Shown: positions 2,498-16,849 of the stretch, in pieces | Layout: the number at the start of each line of letters is the position of its first letter | Position numbering within the stretch: the stretch's first letter is position 1 | Virus record (IMG/VR): IMGVR_UViG_3300010266_000005 | Location: 1 to 33,838 of that record | Source of the DNA: a virus | Length of the DNA: 33,838 nucleotides | Strand: one strand, 5' to 3' | Notes under the pieces: model-generated | Told to the model about the DNA's origin: nothing | What the model saw: only the letters and a program-made list of their open reading frames with translations | The model's database searches: none | Made by a program: the position numbers and the translations under genes

Positions 2498-2527
2498 TTG
2501 ACATACCACGCAATGCGTGGCAATATA
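2498..2527 (+). promoter_or_regulatory. Promoter P1 of the accessory cassette, with an operator palindrome in the spacer.
   Basis: TTGACA (2498-2503), 17-nt spacer, TGg-CAATAT extended -10 (2518-2526). The spacer contains the perfect palindrome CCACGCA-A-TGCGTGG (2506-2520). Confidence 0.6.
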
Positions 2528-2578
2528 TAAACAGATCAAGAAAGGGTAGCCGCACAGCGGCAGAAAGGGAGGAACATC

Positions 2579-2786
2579 ATGGCTAAGACTTTTTTACAGC
2601 GTCACCTATGCAGTGTGGGGATCCAGCTTCTGCCGGGAGGCATGGTTTGACAACAAGGACGTCGCCGCCGACTTCGCGGCGCACGATTTCCGGGATGCCC
2701 CGGTCGCCCACACCTACCGCAAGGCGGACAGCATCCGCACCGCCGAGGAGCGCGTGGCCGCTACGGCAGTAGCGCTGACCCACTGA
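2579..2786 (+). CDS. Small ORF with an excellent RBS, interrupted by a frame change at a T6 run (2590-2595). It gives 23 aa as written and about 68 aa if one T is removed.
   Basis: GGGAGG RBS 6 nt before ATG 2579. The downstream GC3-rich open frame (YSVTYAVWGSSFCREAWFDNKDV...ALTH, stop 2784-2786) has no start codon of its own. Confidence 0.35.
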
Positions 2787-2864
2787 TAGCGGCAACAACG
2801 CTTCTGGTGGGGTTGAGCGCATCAGCCCCACCCCATGAAAATTTTTGAACAGGAGGAACAGAGC

Positions 2865-3401
2865 ATGAACGCACAGGAGCTGATTTTGCGGCACAGGATC
2901 TCCCTGAAACTCGACGAACACGGCCAGCCCACAGGAAATCTGGTTGTGTACCGCGCCGACAAAGCGGCTCTTGCCGCTATCAAAGCCGCAAAGCCGGAGA
3001 TCGTGCCCACGCTGCTGGAGCAGCGAGAAACCGCCCTCCGCGCCGAACAGGAGCGGCAGAAGAAAATCGCCGCCATTCCCGGACTGCGGGAGATTGAAGC
3101 CGCCCGCGCCGATCTGGTAAACTGGAAACTGGAATTTGACGCCAGCTTTGACGGCGAGAACGGCGGCGGCGTGGGTGTCCGTCCCAAGCCTAAGTATGAC
3201 ATGGATGCCATGTACGCCCAGTACCCCCGCGCCAAGGCGTATCTGGACGCTGCAGATTTTGCGGCGTCCGAAAACGACGCAAAGTCCGCAGCCGGCATGA
3301 TGGCGCTGGAGGTCATCATCAACGGCGACAACCACGAGCAGGCCATCGCCGCCATGAACAGTGCGTGGGCGGCACACTGCGGACGGAATATTTGGGACTA
3401 A
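2865..3401 (+). CDS. Hypothetical protein (178 aa), accessory cassette.
   Basis: AGGAGG RBS before ATG 2865 (the ATG at 2835 lacks an RBS). Protein-like composition. No family recognised. Confidence 0.6.
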   Translation: MNAQELILRHRISLKLDEHGQPTGNLVVYRADKAALAAIKAAKPEIVPTLLEQRETALRAEQERQKKIAAIPGLREIEAARADLVNWKLEFDASFDGENGGGVGVRPKPKYDMDAMYAQYPRAKAYLDAADFAASENDAKSAAGMMALEVIINGDNHEQAIAAMNSAWAAHCGRNIWD

Positions 3402-3413
3402 GGGGGCTATGTC

Positions 3414-3743
3414 ATGGCAAACATGGAGATCAACACCCACGGCAGAAAAATCAACATGGCGGATCTTGCAGAAGCGTCCGAATATACCAGGGGCCTCGGC
3501 TCCCGCACGGGGGAGTACATGGAGATTTTTTACGACAAGTCCACCGGCGAGGTATGGGGAAAGTATCACTGGGACCGCGAGGAATGGACGGTCTACCACG
3601 ATGATGATGTTATCAAGGTCGGCCTCGCAATCCGTTTCAAATCCCCGCAGCGTATCGCGGACATGATTGCCCGAACCTTGACGGAAGAAGAAGGCTGGGA
3701 GCGCGAGAACGCCACATATCTGGCGGGCGGCGCGCAGTCATGA
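3414..3743 (+). CDS. Hypothetical protein (109 aa), accessory cassette.
   Basis: AAGGGGG RBS 7 nt upstream of the ATG. No family recognised. Confidence 0.6.
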   Translation: MANMEINTHGRKINMADLAEASEYTRGLGSRTGEYMEIFYDKSTGEVWGKYHWDREEWTVYHDDDVIKVGLAIRFKSPQRIADMIARTLTEEEGWERENATYLAGGAQS

Positions 3744-3749
3744 CGGTGC

Positions 3750-3778
3750 TTGACATTTCCTACGCAGCGTGGTAAACT
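3750..3778 (+). promoter_or_regulatory. Promoter P2 (near-consensus) driving the repeat-like RNA.
   Basis: TTGACA (3750-3755), 17-nt spacer, TGg-TAAACT (3770-3778). The spacer holds ..CCTACGCAGCGTGG, related to the P1 operator. Confidence 0.6.
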
Positions 3779-3811
3779 ATTTTTGTCGGATGCAAGAGGC
3801 GCTTGCATCTG

Positions 3812-3844
3812 GTGCGGCGCAATCCCGCCGCCGTGGATTGAAAT
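3812..3844 (+). CRISPR. Solitary type I-C-like CRISPR repeat unit GTGCGGCGCAATCCCGCCGCCGTGGATTGAAAT. Single copy, not an array.
   Basis: A 6-bp GC stem with a 6-nt loop is followed directly by GTGGATTGAAAT, the conserved 3' end of I-C repeats as I remember them (GTCGCGCCCCGCACGGGCGCGTGGATTGAAAC; GTCGCACTCTACATGAGTGCGTGGATTGAAAT). Confidence 0.55.
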
Positions 3845-3874
3845 AGTGAGAAGGACAAACACTTCAAGCGCAGG

Positions 3875-3908
3875 AAAAGCACCGGGCTTCCGGTGCTTTT
3901 CCTTTTTT
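3875..3908 (+). terminator. Intrinsic terminator.
   Basis: aaaagcaccgg-gctt-ccggtgctttt (11-bp stem) followed by ccTTTTTT. Confidence 0.85.
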
Positions 3909-3926
3909 GCAAAGAAAGGATAAGAT

Positions 3927-4265
3927 ATGACTGACAAACTGTTTTACACCATCTTCAGCGCGGCGCTGGATGCCGCCGACCGCGATAACTTTATCTCCGA
4001 CTGGGCGCTTTCCTCTGTCTGGGATGACGCCGCAAACATCCCAGCGGAACGCATCGCTGTACTTGGCGGCATATGGGATGCCGCCCACCTGACGATCCGC
4101 GACATCCGCCAGCATACCGGCCTATCCCAAGCGGCCTTTGCCACGCGCTACTGCATCCCCACCCGCACGCTGGAGGACTGGGAGCGCGGCGCTCGGAGCT
4201 GCCCCGACTATCTCCGTCTCCTGCTGGCACAGGCAACCGGAGCATATCAGCGGCCGTGGGGATAG
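3927..4265 (+). CDS. HTH DNA-binding protein (XRE/MqsA-like C-terminal HTH). Candidate regulator of the cassette (aca-like).
   Basis: IRQHTGLSQAAFATRYCIPTRTLEDWERGARSCPDYLRLLL is the typical G-LSQ..FA....IP.RTL..WE.G.R.P..Y...LL motif. Confidence 0.7.
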   Translation: MTDKLFYTIFSAALDAADRDNFISDWALSSVWDDAANIPAERIAVLGGIWDAAHLTIRDIRQHTGLSQAAFATRYCIPTRTLEDWERGARSCPDYLRLLLAQATGAYQRPWG

Positions 4266-4307
4266 CCCGTTGTCATTTCGTTGTCAAAAGTTGTTTTTAT
4301 TAAGCGC

Positions 4308-4338
4308 AAAGCCGTCCGCAAGGCTGGACGGCTTTTGT
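4308..4338 (+). terminator. Terminator of the accessory cassette.
   Basis: agccgtcc-gcaaggct-ggacggct followed by TTTTGTG. Confidence 0.6.
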
Positions 4339-4383
4339 GCTGGCTCGGACGCGCGGCGAGCCTAAAATCCTTGTAAATAAAGA

Positions 4384-4490: not shown

Positions 4491-5621
4491 TCAAACTTCC
4501 GTTGCCATTTTGTTGTCAAAGTAGGCATCAATAGACTTGTCGATTTCTGCCATTCTGTCATCCATCGTGTAGGCGTAGACCTGCTTGTACACCCAGTCGT
4601 CGGACCAGCCGTTTCGCTCCTGCGCGTATTTTGATTCCACGCCCAGGCGGACCATGATGGCGGCGTTGGCGTGGCGCAGGTCGTGGAAGCGGCAGCGGGG
4701 AATGCCGGCGGCAGCGAGGCCGCGAATAAAGCGATTGTAGAGCGTCTGGCCGGAGACTGGAACGATGTAGCCCTCACTGCGTCCGGTGGCATCTATCAGA
4801 GCCTGAATGTGGGCGGGGACAGATATCCGGCGATCGCCGGAAAAGGTCTTCGGCGGCTTTACCTCGTCGCCATGTTCGCCGGAGACAATGGCGCGGCAGA
4901 TATGCAGCCGGCCTCCGGAGATATCCTCGAACCTGGCGCCGCGGATCTCCGACATGCGCATCCCCATCCACAGCGCCATGAGCACGGGCAGCTCCATGTC
5001 CGTGCCGGAGAATGCCGCGATGATCTTGCCAATCTCGGCGTCCTCAATCCTGCGCAGCTCCACTTTCCGCTTCTGCGGAAGAATGATAGAGATCTTTGAA
5101 TCTGGCGCAAACTGCTTGAGGACAGAGACAAGAAGTCCTTCAACGTTTCGGATATACTTGGGGCTCTTCCCGTTTTTCACCATCTTTCCGATCTCCCGCT
5201 GGATCTGCTCGGAGGTGATAGAGGAAGCCGGCAGTTTCATCAGGCTTGGGAAGGATGTTTTTGCGAGGCGCTTGTACTCTGCGGCGGTGGAGGGGGAGAT
5301 CACGCCGTCCCGGGATTCGATGTACTTTCGGTAAGCCTCCCTCAAGGTCATGGTCGAGGCGGCCTTTTCGGGCGCCTTCAGACCGTGCTTGATGGCCATG
5401 GCCTCGGCAATGGCTTCCTCCTTGGTCTCGCGCGTGATGGACACGTCCTGCCCGTTGACGCGGACACGGCAGGCCCACGAGCCGCTGGGAAGCTTCCGGG
5501 CGGTGGGCGTGTGGGCGGTGTTCTTGCTGCGCTGCTCCCGGACCTGCCGGGCGCCGCACCATTTGCAGTAGACGGAGTCGGCGTCTATCTCGCGGCCGCA
5601 GCCCTTATTCTTGCACTGCAT
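4491..5621 (-). CDS. int: Tyrosine integrase with an N-terminal zinc-ribbon.
   Basis: MQCKNKGCGREIDADSVYCKWCG (CxxC..CxxC). Catalytic region MRMSEIRGARFEDI, RFHDLRHANA, and ..YAYT.. (R..HxxR..Y). Confidence 0.9.
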   Translation of the reverse strand: MQCKNKGCGREIDADSVYCKWCGARQVREQRSKNTAHTPTARKLPSGSWACRVRVNGQDVSITRETKEEAIAEAMAIKHGLKAPEKAASTMTLREAYRKYIESRDGVISPSTAAEYKRLAKTSFPSLMKLPASSITSEQIQREIGKMVKNGKSPKYIRNVEGLLVSVLKQFAPDSKISIILPQKRKVELRRIEDAEIGKIIAAFSGTDMELPVLMALWMGMRMSEIRGARFEDISGGRLHICRAIVSGEHGDEVKPPKTFSGDRRISVPAHIQALIDATGRSEGYIVPVSGQTLYNRFIRGLAAAGIPRCRFHDLRHANAAIMVRLGVESKYAQERNGWSDDWVYKQVYAYTMDDRMAEIDKSIDAYFDNKMATEV

Positions 5622-5933: not shown

Positions 5934-6254
5934 TTATTTTTCCCGCTCCCGTCTCAGGCGGAGCATAAAGGCAAACAGTTCGTTCCGCTGCTCAGCGGTC
6001 ATGCTGTCCAGCAGGCGCATAAACTCCTGCCGCACCGGATCCGGCGGTGTCTCCTTTTCCCCCAGCAGGTCGGAGACGGTGCAGTCCAGGTATTGGGCCA
6101 GCAGTTGCACCTTGGCCACAGAGGGCGTCGTGCCCTTGTTTACGTCCGTGATGAAACTGGTTCCAACGCCGCTTTCGCGACAAGCTACCGTAGGCTTGAC
6201 CCCTTTTACTCGACACCTTTCTTTGATATTTCTTACAAAAAGCTCTTTGTCCAT
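5934..6254 (-). CDS. XRE-family HTH regulator. Candidate CI-like lysogeny repressor.
   Basis: NIKERCRVKGVKPTVACRESGVGTSFITDVNKGTTPSVAKVQLLAQYLDCTVSDLLGE is a classic Cro/CI-type HTH. It has the same orientation as int. Confidence 0.8.
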   Translation of the reverse strand: MDKELFVRNIKERCRVKGVKPTVACRESGVGTSFITDVNKGTTPSVAKVQLLAQYLDCTVSDLLGEKETPPDPVRQEFMRLLDSMTAEQRNELFAFMLRLRREREK

Positions 6255-6274: not shown

Positions 6275-7192
6275 TTATAGGAGTTTCAGAAACTCCTGTT
6301 CGGATATCACGGCAATTGATGCGCCCTTTGCATTGAGCGCGGCCGCCTTTTCCTCCTTATCGCTCATGCCGTCGCAACCGACGATGATTTCGTCCTGCTC
6401 TCCGACCACCAAATAGTGGGTCTTTTTTGATACGGCGCTTTTTACAGTGGCGCCGGCAGCCTCTGCGAGGGATTTGGCTGCTGCGCGCGGAAAGCTCAAC
6501 GCACCAGTAAATACGACGGCCTTGCCGTCCAATTCTCCACCTCGGCATATGTCACCGACTGATATTGGACACGTTCCTGACGCAGACTTTTGAAGATAGG
6601 ATCGCAGTGCAGCATTTCGTTCGCCTTTGCTGTGAAGCGCATGATCCAGCCTGTTGTCACTGCAAAGCCAAGATAGGATTGCTCCACACGCGCGACAATC
6701 CTCAAGCGCATCGTGAAAGCGCGTCATGTAACCGATTTTCTCGCATGCATCAGATAGCTTACTGTAAGGATGACCAGTGACTCGCCCGTAAAGAGTCATC
6801 ACGTCAAAGCAGCGGGCGAAGCAATCTCTAATAGTTCCCTCCGCCGCCTCCAAAAAACTGGCGTCAAAAGAAACATTCCATCCTGCGGTGTACGGGGATG
6901 CAGATACAAATTCTGCGAAAGCGCCAATCACCTCGTCGATGGTTGGGGCAGTAGCGACCATATCCTCCGTAATCCCAGTTAACTCTGTCACTGTGGACGG
7001 TATAGGGGACTCCGGATTGACGTAGGTTTTGTAACTATCGCTCTCGTGGTGCTTAATGTATCGCACCGCGGCGAGTTGGATGATTCTGCAGGTCTGAGGA
7101 TCAACTCCTGTGGTTTCGAGATCTATGACCACATAGTCGGACAGACCTTCCGGGCCACTAAAAGGCATGACGTGAGATGTGTCTTTATTCAT
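6275..7192 (-). CDS. DEDDh (DnaQ-like) 3'-5' exonuclease fused to a C-terminal BRCT domain.
   Basis: ExoI VVIDLETTG, ExoII WNVSFDASFL, ExoIII HDALEDCRA. C-terminus GKAVVFTGALS..AKSLAEAAGATVKSAVSKKTHYLVVGE...ISEQEFLKLL resembles the LigA BRCT domain. Start moved to ATG 7192, which has a GGAGG RBS. Confidence 0.8.
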   Translation of the reverse strand: MNKDTSHVMPFSGPEGLSDYVVIDLETTGVDPQTCRIIQLAAVRYIKHHESDSYKTYVNPESPIPSTVTELTGITEDMVATAPTIDEVIGAFAEFVSASPYTAGWNVSFDASFLEAAEGTIRDCFARCFDVMTLYGRVTGHPYSKLSDACEKIGYMTRFHDALEDCRACGAILSWLCSDNRLDHALHSKGERNAALRSYLQKSASGTCPISVGDICRGGELDGKAVVFTGALSFPRAAAKSLAEAAGATVKSAVSKKTHYLVVGEQDEIIVGCDGMSDKEEKAAALNAKGASIAVISEQEFLKLL

Positions 7193-7258
7193 GATGCGCC
7201 TCCGATGTAGACGATATAGACAAAACGTAACCGCTAAAATTGTGAACGCAAACAATAA

Positions 7259-12240: not shown

Positions 12241-13786
12241 CATGGGTGAGTTTGCCAAGACGCTGGCGCAGCCGGTGTCCGAGTCGGGCACCGGGCGGGA
12301 GCAGATCGAGTACATAGACATGGATCTTCTGGACAGTGACCCCGGCAACTTCTACGAGCTCCGCGATTTGGATAGTCTGGCGGACAACATCGCTACCATC
12401 GGCCTCCAGCAGCCCATCCGGGTGCGGGACGGCGAGAACGGTCACGCGGTGATCGTCTCCGGCCACCGCCGCGTGGCGGCTATCCGCAAGCTGGTGGAGG
12501 ACGGGCGGACGGATCTCCGCGAGGTACCCTGTATTCGTGAAAAGGGTGATGCGTCTCCGGCGCTGCGGGAGCTGCGCCTGATCTACGCCAACAGCAGTAC
12601 CCGCGCGCTGAGTTCCCCGGAGATCTCCCAGCAGGTGGAGAAGGTGCGGGAGCTGCTGTACCAGCTGAAGGAGGAAGGCTACGAGTTCCCCGGCCGCATG
12701 CGGGATCATGTGGCCGAGGCCTGCAAAATCAGCAAAAGCAAGCTGGCGCGGCTGGATGTTATCCGGAAGGGCTTGGCTCCTGGCATCCGGAAATTCTACT
12801 GGGACGGCCCCCAGAGTAAGAGTTTGAGCGAGGATGCGGCCTACACCCTCGCCCGTCTTCCGGTGGACGTGCAGCGTCAGGTGGTTGATGCATACCGCGG
12901 TCAGGCCCAGGGCGACAGCGGCCTGAAATATCTCTACGCAAGCACGGTGGAGGCTGTGACTAAGTCCGTGAGCAAGGTTAACGGTAGCCCGGCGAAGTGC
13001 CCCGATGGCGCGGCATGCTCGCACAAGGATGCGCAGGTCTCCCATACCATCAAGGTGAAGGTCAAGAGCCGCTGGTCGGACTGCGGGTGTGAGTATGGCT
13101 GCTGCGCGAAGTGCAGCTCGCTGCAAAGCTGTAAAGATGTGTGTCCAAATTTGATTGGCAAGCAGAAGGAGCTGAAGGCCGCCGCCAAGGCGGAGCGGCA
13201 GCGGGAGGCGGCCGAAAAAGAAGCGCGGCAGCGGCCGGACGCAGAGCGCGTCGGCGCCATCTGGCAGAGGTTCGGCGCCCTGCGCGAACGGGCAGGCCTG
13301 ACGCCGAAGCAGTATTTTGAGAAAATCGGCTGCCCATATAGCGGGCTTATTGAGAGGGCGGAATCTCTCGAAGCCGGCCGCGAGAAAATCGAGCCAAACG
13401 AAGGACTTCCGTTCGGCTACAATGTTGGCCTGTCCCATATCAATCAATGGGTGGCTGCGGCGGATACGCTGGGCTGCAGCGTGGATTACCTGATGCTGCG
13501 CACCGGCGAGCCGCGTATGGCGGATGAAGTGGCCGCCGTCCCGCGGGTCTGCGCCAGTCAGATGGCGCTTGCCGCGTGGATGCCCGGCGGCACGACGCCG
13601 GCAGAGCCGTGTGACGTGGTGGCGGAGTTCGACCTGAGCAGCGACGGCGAGCTGACATCTCGCTCGCTCTGCCGGTGGGACGGTGAGGCGTTCCGGTTCG
13701 GGAAGAGCAGAGACAAGATCGAGGTGCGTGTCGTCCGGTGGCTGGCGCTGCCGGAGGTGGAAAAGGAGGATGGTAACGATGATTGA
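12227..13786 (+). CDS. parB: Large ParB-like protein: N-terminal ParB/Srx domain, Cys-rich cluster, coiled-coil, XRE-type HTH, and a C-terminal domain.
   Basis: NFYELRDLDSLADNIATIGLQQPIRVR..VIVSGHRRVAAIRKL (ParB box). Cys cluster CPDGAACSH...CGCEYGCCAKCSSLQSCKDVCPN. ..LGCSVDYLMLRTGEP is an HTH ending. Start is uncertain (GTG 12218, GTG 12227 or ATG 12242). Confidence 0.75.
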   Translation: MAKFDMGEFAKTLAQPVSESGTGREQIEYIDMDLLDSDPGNFYELRDLDSLADNIATIGLQQPIRVRDGENGHAVIVSGHRRVAAIRKLVEDGRTDLREVPCIREKGDASPALRELRLIYANSSTRALSSPEISQQVEKVRELLYQLKEEGYEFPGRMRDHVAEACKISKSKLARLDVIRKGLAPGIRKFYWDGPQSKSLSEDAAYTLARLPVDVQRQVVDAYRGQAQGDSGLKYLYASTVEAVTKSVSKVNGSPAKCPDGAACSHKDAQVSHTIKVKVKSRWSDCGCEYGCCAKCSSLQSCKDVCPNLIGKQKELKAAAKAERQREAAEKEARQRPDAERVGAIWQRFGALRERAGLTPKQYFEKIGCPYSGLIERAESLEAGREKIEPNEGLPFGYNVGLSHINQWVAAADTLGCSVDYLMLRTGEPRMADEVAAVPRVCASQMALAAWMPGGTTPAEPCDVVAEFDLSSDGELTSRSLCRWDGEAFRFGKSRDKIEVRVVRWLALPEVEKEDGNDD

Positions 13787-16511: not shown

Positions 16512-16849
16512 CCCCCCCTCGAAAAAACGCCCCTCGCGTCTTTTTTGCTACTCGTGGGGGTCCAGGACATTCCAGCGATTTCCGCGTCTGCGCGTCGCCG
16601 CGCTGCGCGTGGGCGCGAGGATCGCCGGGCAATTCCAGAATGAACTGCGGTTTTGCGGGGCGGGCAGCCCCGGAAGTACTCTTCTCCTTTTTCCTCGGTT
16701 CGGGCGGCTCGTCCGCCCGTCCCGCAAAGCCGCAGAAGAATGCCTCGGGCTGGTCATCCGAAGGCCTGCGCTGGATGCGCGGGGTATTGACGTAGGCTGT
16801 TTGGCCTGAGGCGGACGCGGTGTCCGAATCGGGCACGGGAGGTGACTTA

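Follow-up and report, generated by a model that had tools for sequence, protein, structure and literature searches.

In operons formed by anti-CRISPR (acr) and anti-CRISPR-associated (aca) genes, variable small genes are followed by a conserved helix-turn-helix (HTH) gene, and an inverted repeat lies over the promoter (PMC13551039, PMC12282945). Aca1 of the Pseudomonas phage JBD30 and Aca2 of the Pectobacterium phage ZF40 are repressors of such operons, and Aca1 to Aca14 have been named; Aca12 is a protein of 140 amino acids (aa) found in phages of Streptococcaceae. The anatomy of promoter, transcription start and hairpin of the 5' untranslated region (UTR), with the start 10-15 nt after the DNA motif, has been described for the aca1, aca2, aca10 and aca12 operons (PMC13551039). 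In AcrIIA32, an Acr domain and an Aca13 domain are joined in one protein, and the acr promoter has inverted repeats between its -35 and -10 elements (PMC12282945). RNA anti-CRISPRs (Racrs) are solitary repeat units (SRUs) with a promoter within 250 bp upstream, clustered with acr genes, as is the case for RacrIC1, which lies beside acrIC5 in a prophage of Bifidobacterium pseudocatenulatum (PMC10651486). Cracr RNAs consist of a single repeat-like element, a shortened spacer-like stretch and a rho-independent terminator and are linked to candidate protein Acrs; their criterion is that at least nine spacer bases proximal to the protospacer-adjacent motif (PAM) match a host cas or creT promoter beside a PAM (bioRxiv 10.1101/2024.10.29.618823). 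Here we analyze positions 2498 to 4338 of a viral DNA of 33,838 nt (IMG/VR record IMGVR_UViG_3300010266_000005, positions 1 to 33,838; this whole stretch is referred to as the window), where a promoter with a palindrome, small genes, a repeat-like RNA and the gene of an HTH protein follow one another.

The cassette formed by these elements belongs to a known kind of system and is not of a new kind. The reading that we favor, and hold to be moderately probable, is that it is an anti-defence cassette of the acr-racr-aca type in the accessory slot of a temperate phage of gut Bacillota. Its architecture and the pairing of operator and regulator are well supported by the comparison of related loci; an anti-CRISPR activity of the RNA may reasonably be inferred, and the cargo proteins are candidate inhibitors through guilt by association only.

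The cassette and its boundaries

An earlier note, made from the sequence of the window, had described a self-contained unit with its own promoter and terminator, and all the feature positions that it gave are confirmed on the sequence. The cassette and the terminator in front of it have the following parts (energies and z scores are from folding).

2436-2453 and 2458-2475: arms of the terminator upstream of the cassette (-32 kcal/mol, z -8.5)
2498-2526, plus strand: promoter P1, with -35 TTGACA (2498-2503), a 17-nt spacer and extended -10 TGgCAATAT (2518-2526)
2506-2520: putative binding site of the HTH protein (operator), the perfect palindrome CCACGCA-A-TGCGTGG (CCACGCAATGCGTGG) in the P1 spacer
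2533-2578, plus strand: predicted 5' UTR of the P1 transcript (-8.6 kcal/mol, z -2.1)
2579-2786, plus strand: F1 pseudogene, a frameshifted copy of a 68-aa cargo gene, with one extra T (T6 at 2590-2595 versus T5)
2865-3401, plus strand: F4 cargo gene, 178 aa
3414-3743, plus strand: F0 cargo gene, 109 aa
3750-3778, plus strand: promoter P2, TTGACA, 17 nt, TGgTAAACT (10/12 with TG in the promoter scan)
3785-3909, plus strand: small RNA of ~120 nt with P2 upstream (-57 kcal/mol, z -4.6)
3927-4265, plus strand: HTH gene, 112 aa (Pfam HTH_3, E 3e-6; phrog_25567, E 5e-16)
4303-4341, plus strand: terminator-like hairpin closing the cassette (-25.8 kcal/mol, z -4.4)

The left boundary is placed by comparison: the similarity between cassette loci starts ~15-20 nt 5' of the -35 element, and the boundary is set there because the flanks further upstream differ between loci. 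The cassette is found in varied elements, behind different endolysins and endolysin terminators, in a further phage setting, and, beside rpoB, in a chromosomal element that has an rve integrase. In the window, an endolysin gene with CHAP and PG_binding_1 domains (domain search) ends at 2430. The source phage is temperate and siphovirus-like and its host is probably one of the human-gut Bacillota; its terminase has no close relative among named phages. The cassette occupies an accessory slot, with the lysis genes on one side and attP/int on the other. Loci of the AcrIIA1 type in Listeria also sit beside lysis genes.

The P1 operator and the HTH protein

The palindrome CCACGCAATGCGTGG occurs as a single copy in the 33.8-kb window, where looser matches with at most two mismatches are at chance level (7 found versus 4.2 expected). 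P1 is conserved in more than 120 loci, and among the relatives the half-sites of the operator are invariant and its center is variable (AAT/ATT/AAC), giving the consensus CCACGC-N3-GCGTGG between the -35 and -10 elements. The description of P1 as a promoter with a perfect palindrome stands as to sequence and position. One correction concerns the -10 element, which is weak in the window (3/6), and this is why P1 is missed by the consensus scan. The scan does find the promoter in L063, a 95%-identical relative whose corresponding site is TGGTAATAT, with a score of 10/12 and TG; the weakening in the window lineage is due to a T>C change at the first base of the -10 element (2521).

The linkage between this operator and the HTH gene is established by searches in both directions. 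In a first set of 50 viral loci, fetched via the HTH protein, the P1 pattern is found 0.3-1.4 kb upstream of the HTH gene in 47. When the promoter-operator pattern alone is used, at least 120 viral loci are obtained, and in 111 of their 123 distinct segments a gene of the HTH family lies 0.35-1.65 kb downstream of the operator; most of the others end at contig edges. The same pairing exists in Streptococcus phage PH15, where the order is endolysin, TTGACA-AAGCACGCAATGCGTGC-TATAAT, two small unknown open reading frames (ORFs) and ORF58. The operator behind this endolysin, GCACGCAATGCGTGC, is almost identical to the P1 operator, and ORF58 is a full-length homolog of the HTH protein (34% identical; phrog_25567 at 1e-50). 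As PH15 belongs to the phages of another bacterial class and has both, the operator core CACGCAATGCGTG has been kept together with the protein over a large distance. Other regulators go with other palindromes at the same spacer position: locus L060 has an unrelated 53-aa HTH protein and the palindrome ACGCTAATATTAGCGT, and locus L220 has a protein with an N-terminal HTH and the palindrome ACCATATATGGT twice, both with F4 cargo. In L217, where no regulator was recognized, CACCAA-N-TTGGTG occurs twice at this promoter position, linked to F4. Given the co-occurrence, the PH15 pairing and this exchange of palindromes with regulators, the P1 palindrome is most likely the operator of the cassette HTH protein. 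The arrangement that had been likened to acr-aca operons, with a conserved promoter-operator and a terminal HTH gene around variable small ORFs, is likewise recovered in the locus comparison.

In addition to P1, the HTH protein had been proposed to control P2, whose spacer contains CCTACGCAGCGTGG (3759-3772), a sequence with a degenerate resemblance to the P1 operator. At the level of these sequence patterns, the proposal that one repressor acts on P1 and P2 is supported for P1 and not for P2. The left half CCTACGC of the window is exceptional, the relatives having mostly CCTGCGC, CCCGCGC or CCTGTGC (one to three mismatches to CCACGC), and the right half GCGTGG is intact in 22/33 distinct P2 sequences, whereas both half-sites of P1 are invariant. 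Because the left half-site varies among the relatives, co-regulation of P2 is not supported; P2 retains at most a half-site, which overlaps the TG of the extended -10 element. As a copy of the operator P2 was rejected, being not conserved and differing by more than two mismatches from the P1 pattern at N3 spacing.

Tandem operator-promoters exist in some phages, and in others an operator-promoter drives a single gene that has no HTH gene in its vicinity (loci of these kinds are L133, with sites at 1185 and 1931; L141, two sites ~680 nt apart; L163, an internal site; L183 and L193). Together, these suggest that the HTH protein regulates further operons in trans. A text search of the literature for the operator string gave no match.

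The end of the operator lies ~13 nt before the predicted transcription start, and a conserved 5' UTR hairpin follows, GCCGC-ACA-GCGGC (2549-2561), immediately 5' of the ribosome-binding site; it is preserved via two-sided changes in L053 and L046. In this respect, as well as in the variable small genes followed by a conserved HTH gene and in the inverted repeat over the promoter, the cassette resembles the acr-aca operons, including their predicted start 10-15 nt past the motif and their conserved 5' UTR hairpin (PMC13551039, PMC12282945). It differs from them in having a single palindrome, located in the -35/-10 spacer, and in that the HTH gene of the RNA-bearing cassettes is set apart from the cargo by a further promoter, the RNA gene and its strong terminator.

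A 5' UTR element '..ATCAAGA..stem-ACA-stem-AGGAGG' is common to cassettes with different operators and regulators (window 2536-2575; L053; L058, 3960-3995; L060, 3725-3758; L217, 2465-2495; L220, 1745-1770). Its stem varies (GCCGC, GCCGCC, GGGC, GGGG), and the hairpin and its place 5' of the ribosome-binding site are constant. The element recalls the Aca-associated 5' UTR RNA motifs (PMC13551039).

The HTH protein consists of a conserved N-terminal domain of ~55 aa and a C-terminal Xre-type HTH domain, and it has 298 cluster-level relatives in gut metagenomes; when genome contigs were scanned with the HTH peptides, the only match was a distant one, in Rhodobacterales. A profile search of the PDB with the protein returns only Atu1735, HigA2 and generic Xre/434-type domains, with no Aca, AcrIIA1 or AcrIIA32 among them, so that a relation of the phrog_25567 family to the solved Aca proteins is not detectable. 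Aca11, with its N-terminal HTH, and Aca13, with its non-canonical helix, look different from the cassette protein, judging by the published descriptions (PMC12282945). With AcrIIA32 and the AcrIIA1-type regulators of Streptococcus and Listeria phages it shares the two-domain organization with a C-terminal DNA-binding part, and with AcrIIA32 also the inverted repeats between -35 and -10 (PMC12282945), but no sequence similarity to these proteins is detected.

A 230-aa ORF of L062 (MT835551, 2626-3318) has a CxxC-rich, zinc-ribbon-like region, like that of the 198-aa cargo protein F8, and an HTH domain in one frame. It is a possible cargo-regulator fusion, reminiscent of the Acr-Aca fusions AcrIIA32 and AcrIF24.

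Atu1735 and HigA2, the proteins of solved structure closest to the HTH domain, are antitoxins, and there is a weak NCBIfam hit to MqsA, as would be expected if the locus were a toxin-antitoxin or abortive-infection module with the HTH protein as its antitoxin. We consider this extremely unlikely. The similarity is restricted to the ~40-residue HTH, one to five cargo genes precede the HTH gene in place of a fixed two-gene pair, and the partners are exchanged among ~35-40 unrelated families, none of which has a toxin domain.

Exchangeable cargo genes

Between the promoter and the HTH gene, ~35-40 unrelated cargo families are found in more than 40 arrangements, and this exchange of cargo within a constant frame is evident from the comparison of the loci. 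Many of the proteins have 60-140 aa and a large acidic excess, such as the 89-aa family C4 with 23 acidic versus 8 basic residues. The families are without annotation in Pfam, PHROGs and the PDB sequences, except C14 and C16 (HTH-domain matches) and C11 (unnamed and tail-fibre PHROGs). Neither enzymatic, membrane or toxin domains nor PADLOC hits were found among the cargo.

The two intact cargo ORFs of the window, which had been described as unrecognizable, are real genes that remain without a match. Purifying selection acts on all four genes, with pairwise ratios of nonsynonymous to synonymous substitution rates (dN/dS) among the relatives of 0.10 (F4), 0.21 (HTH), 0.31 (F0) and 0.33 (F1), and all four are therefore protein-coding. 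F4 and F0 have no match in Pfam, PHROGs, NCBIfam, PADLOC or the PDB sequences. Structure prediction, which had been proposed as a check, gives confident AlphaFold2 models with predicted local distance difference test (pLDDT) values of 92 for F4 and 86 for F0, and no PDB fold match: in the Foldseek searches, the F4 model has none in the PDB at E<=0.001, and the F0 model finds nothing significant in the PDB (best E 0.56) or in BFVD (uncharacterized proteins only, best E 0.03). The F4 family is large, with 849 cluster representatives at E<=1e-3, of ~170-190 aa and with an invariant E-x-GGGVG-x-R-x-x-P loop. It is unannotated, and no domain was found when its fusion proteins and distant members were scanned. 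F4 recurs next to the lysis genes of four other phages, amid small unknown ORFs, and in two of the four an HTH gene adjoins it. The F0 family is narrow (126 clusters); F0 is present in 39 of the first 50 viral loci and in nearly all of these lies directly 5' of the RNA module. A few members of the F4 family are fused to N-terminal regions that are also without annotation.

The small ORF at 2579-2786 had been thought to be frame-broken, and this is what the comparison bears out, the conserved T5 being replaced by T6. An intact 68-aa F1 gene is found in 37 related loci. The same frameshift and the same T>C change in the P1 -10 element recur in L065 and L067, two assemblies of other samples whose cassette sequence is 100% identical to that of the window, and an assembly error is therefore unlikely. 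All three assemblies, each of a different sample, carry both changes, and neither change is seen in the 95%-identical relatives; the two are thus likely to be real, derived mutations of the window lineage.

It is conceivable, but in our view unlikely, that the cassette is a generic moron or lysogenic-conversion unit, the HTH-controlled genes of which serve the lysogen (by superinfection exclusion, prophage defence or effects on host physiology), with the RNA as a captured CRISPR leader and first repeat, functionless or repurposed. The cassette lies where morons are classically found, between the lysis genes and attP, none of the cargo has a demonstrated or homology-based anti-defence role, and the F4 family is large and conserved and stands beside lysis genes even without the HTH gene. 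The nature of the cargo fits this less well, as it comprises dozens of tiny, often strongly acidic proteins devoid of the enzymatic and membrane domains and of the PADLOC hits that were looked for, and the tight autoregulation by an operator within the promoter has the appearance of a design limiting an early burst of expression.

The repeat-like RNA

The RNA between F0 and the HTH gene has the following parts.

3787-3811: hairpin 1, 10 bp
3814-3831: hairpin 2, 6 bp
3833-3844: type I-C handle GTGGATTGAAAT, single-stranded in the fold
3845-3871: spacer-like stretch of 27 nt with a small internal hairpin
3872-3903: terminator, 14 bp and T run

The predicted start of the RNA is the G of GTCGG (3785), 7 nt past the -10 element of P2, and this G is also the first base of the repeat mimic. 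The layout GTCGG, hairpin and GTGGATTGAAAT is that of a type I-C repeat. Published I-C repeats consist of GTCGC, stem, loop, stem and GCGTGGATTGAAAT (PMC4521832, PMC6519985), and 26 real I-C arrays obtained in a metagenome scan have a period of 65-68 and repeats GTCGG..CCGTGGATTGAAAT, some of them, in contigs of 58-64% GC, with GTCGGCCCCCACACGGGGGCCGTGGATTGAAAT. The repeat GTCGGCCCCCACACGGGGGCCGTGGATTGAAAT matches the phage RNA in both single-stranded flanks and differs in the stem. The repeat-like layout beside the cassette genes, as suggested earlier, is thus confirmed against both published and natural repeats. The handle is unique in the window, where 0.08 copies are expected, and the whole unit of GTCGG, hairpin and handle is solitary, occurring once. 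Rfam has no family for the RNA and returns only sub-threshold look-alikes among small RNAs and terminators.

The RNA module is present in ~40/111 cassettes, directly behind F0 or behind a remnant of the F0 3' end. Two length variants exist; the shorter one, found in relatives, has the sequence GTCGGATGCAGGAGGCGCTTGCATCCGTGGATTGAAAA, without the second hairpin, and forms one complete repeat-like unit. The pairing is preserved in nearly all of 30 distinct RNA sequences, across which the consensus promoter, both hairpins and the terminator are kept; covariation support is thin, since only one pair, in the terminator, has clearly changed on both sides. For a captured leader and first repeat, as in the moron explanation, it would be in line that the handle drifts in some relatives (GGGTTGAAAT, GGATCGAAAT, GGATTTAAAT), whereas such retention of promoter, hairpins and terminator is unexpected for a relic. 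In the non-coding gaps of the cassettes without the I-C RNA, no repeat mimics of other CRISPR types were seen on inspection.

In the spacer-like stretch, the first four bases, at the place of the seed, are the most variable, and the pairing of the internal hairpin survives changes in its sequence (GAAGG/CCTTC, GAAGGG/CCCTTC, GAAGGAC/GTCCTTC and, in L012, AAGAAGG/CCATCTT). These two properties argue for a decoy role of the RNA rather than a role as guide. Targets matching the seed of the stretch next to TTC were sought, and none was found in the flanks of the 26 I-C loci, which are not known to be hosts.

The same properties bear on the idea that the RNA is a phage-borne mini-CRISPR of one repeat and one spacer, which uses the I-C machinery of the host against competing phages or host genes, the ORFs then being unrelated to it. 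Virus-borne mini-arrays are known, and a repeat-like unit, ~27 nt and a 3' hairpin resemble a CRISPR RNA precursor in which a terminator replaces the second repeat. Nevertheless, this is very unlikely, as the spacer-like part is conserved across diverged phages, with its internal hairpin maintained and its greatest variability at the seed, as natural I-C arrays have longer spacers (33-35 nt), and as no match to it was found among the phage loci and I-C loci compared.

In its setting the cassette RNA resembles the RacrIC1-acrIC5 locus (PMC10651486), as both have a solitary I-C repeat mimic near small candidate inhibitor genes and a promoter less than 250 bp upstream, which for the cassette RNA is the predicted P2. 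The cassette RNA has its own predicted promoter, while RacrIC1 is bicistronic with the acr gene, and the neighboring protein of the cassette, F0, has no PDB match by sequence or fold. A further difference to Racrs is that the stem is unlike every natural repeat found, and that in one variant two hairpins precede one handle. The RNA sequences are absent from those parts of the published SRU tables with which they were compared (PMC10651486), and this absence may be explained by the deviating stem. The likeness to Cracr RNAs lies in the repeat-like element, the short spacer-like stretch and the terminator, near Acr-type candidates, while a guide role like that of a Cracr is disfavored by the internal hairpin and by the variability of the bases with which the stretch begins.

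Proposed mode of action

In loci without the RNA, the start codon of the HTH gene and the stop codon of the cargo gene before it share bases (ATGA), and because of this overlap the HTH gene is taken to be co-transcribed from P1. In the window, the gap between the T run of the RNA terminator and the HTH start codon is 23 nt; as no promoter fits into this gap, HTH expression would have to come from read-through from P2 or P1.

A possible sequence of events under the anti-defence reading is as follows. On entry or induction, the sigma-70 RNA polymerase of the host would fire P1, and the transcript would yield the cargo, here F4 and F0 because F1 is inactivated. From P2, an abundant RNA of ~120 nt would be made, beginning with the first base of the type I-C repeat mimic and presenting the hairpin and the GTGGATTGAAAT handle to Cas5c. 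Processing by Cas5c would leave an 11-nt handle, followed by ~27 nt that do not serve as a guide and by the terminator as the 3' hairpin, and this product may occupy Cas5c, Cas7 and Cas8c, acting either as a Racr-like decoy or, in the manner of a Cracr, as a short non-immune guide. The cargo proteins would inhibit CRISPR-Cas or other defences. A small fraction of the transcripts would pass the RNA terminator and allow translation of the HTH protein, a putative Aca-like autorepressor, the dimer of which would bind CCACGC-N3-GCGTGG between the -35 and -10 elements of P1 and switch the operon off after an early burst, as Aca proteins do. Such read-through would provide a low repressor supply that is partly independent of P1.

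Several observations weigh against an anti-defence cassette with an I-C-directed RNA. In searches by sequence and fold (Pfam, PHROGs, NCBIfam, PADLOC, PDB, BFVD), neither the cargo proteins nor the HTH protein gave a match to an established Acr, Aca or anti-defence family, Aca12 being outside this comparison. The family of F4 is large and under strong constraint, and its Gly-rich loop is invariant, which is unusual for the fast-evolving Acr proteins, and the cassettes other than the RNA-bearing ones have no pointer to CRISPR specifically. The metagenome collection, scanned for repeat-spacer-repeat units, contains no natural array with the hairpin-1 stem of the RNA, and when the spacers of the closest natural arrays are compared with the window and its relatives, the best match is 28/34, with no TTC PAM. 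The HTH gene is preceded by a strong terminator, and its expression hangs on the assumed read-through. With the P1 -10 element weakened and F1 broken, the cassette may also be partly decaying in the window lineage, or down-tuned.

The 28/34 match is between spacer 34 of L083, a high-GC I-C array with the repeat GTCGGCCCCCACACGGGGGCCGTGGATTGAAAT, and positions 12668-12701 of the window; it is too weak for a host assignment.

A more far-reaching proposal, which we put forward tentatively and hold to be possible rather than likely, is that the phrog_25567 HTH protein with CACGC-N3-GCGTG constitutes an undescribed Aca-type regulator. It would extend from temperate phages of Streptococcus to those of high-GC gut Clostridia and mark an anti-defence island with at least 35 uncharacterized inhibitor families; for the I-C branch, a double role of the RNA gene is envisaged, as a decoy of Cascade or a regulatory guide and also as a leaky terminator setting the amount of repressor. 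To our knowledge, few anti-CRISPRs are known for the gut and oral Bacillota hosts, which are hard to culture. If the favored anti-defence reading is correct, the pattern TTGAC-N3-SCACGCAWTGCGTGSTA and one HTH family would locate anti-defence cassettes in the phages of these bacteria and provide dozens of small candidate inhibitors for testing. It would also add a type I-C RNA anti-CRISPR with a stem unlike every natural repeat found, and such RNAs may escape searches by repeat similarity. The cassette would then combine protein inhibitors with an RNA decoy and a repressor in one naturally occurring unit, with a terminator between the RNA and repressor genes. The value of the finding lies in how widely the regulator/operator family is spread, with Streptococcus phages at one end and phages of high-GC gut Clostridia at the other, and in its many uncharacterized cargo families.

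Other features of the window

Downstream of the cassette lies the integration module.

4491-5621, minus strand: tyrosine integrase (domain search)

The adjoining segment 4424-4452 is the probable attP core. On the minus strand, it resembles the 3' end of a tRNA-like gene (...GGGTTCGACTCCCGTACCCTGCTCCA), with a weak Rfam match to the 3' end of transfer-messenger RNA (E 0.05); a full tRNA is not found there by ARAGORN. The sole Rfam match at the gathering score in the window is a DUF3800-VIII RNA at 16744-16810 (plus strand; 40.7 versus a cut-off of 40.2 bits), which is unconnected with the cassette. A 326-aa protein encoded on the minus strand (6275-7255) combines an RNase_T exonuclease domain with a C-terminal BRCT domain and adjoins a CI-like repressor gene (5934-6254), an unusual pairing for a lysogeny module.

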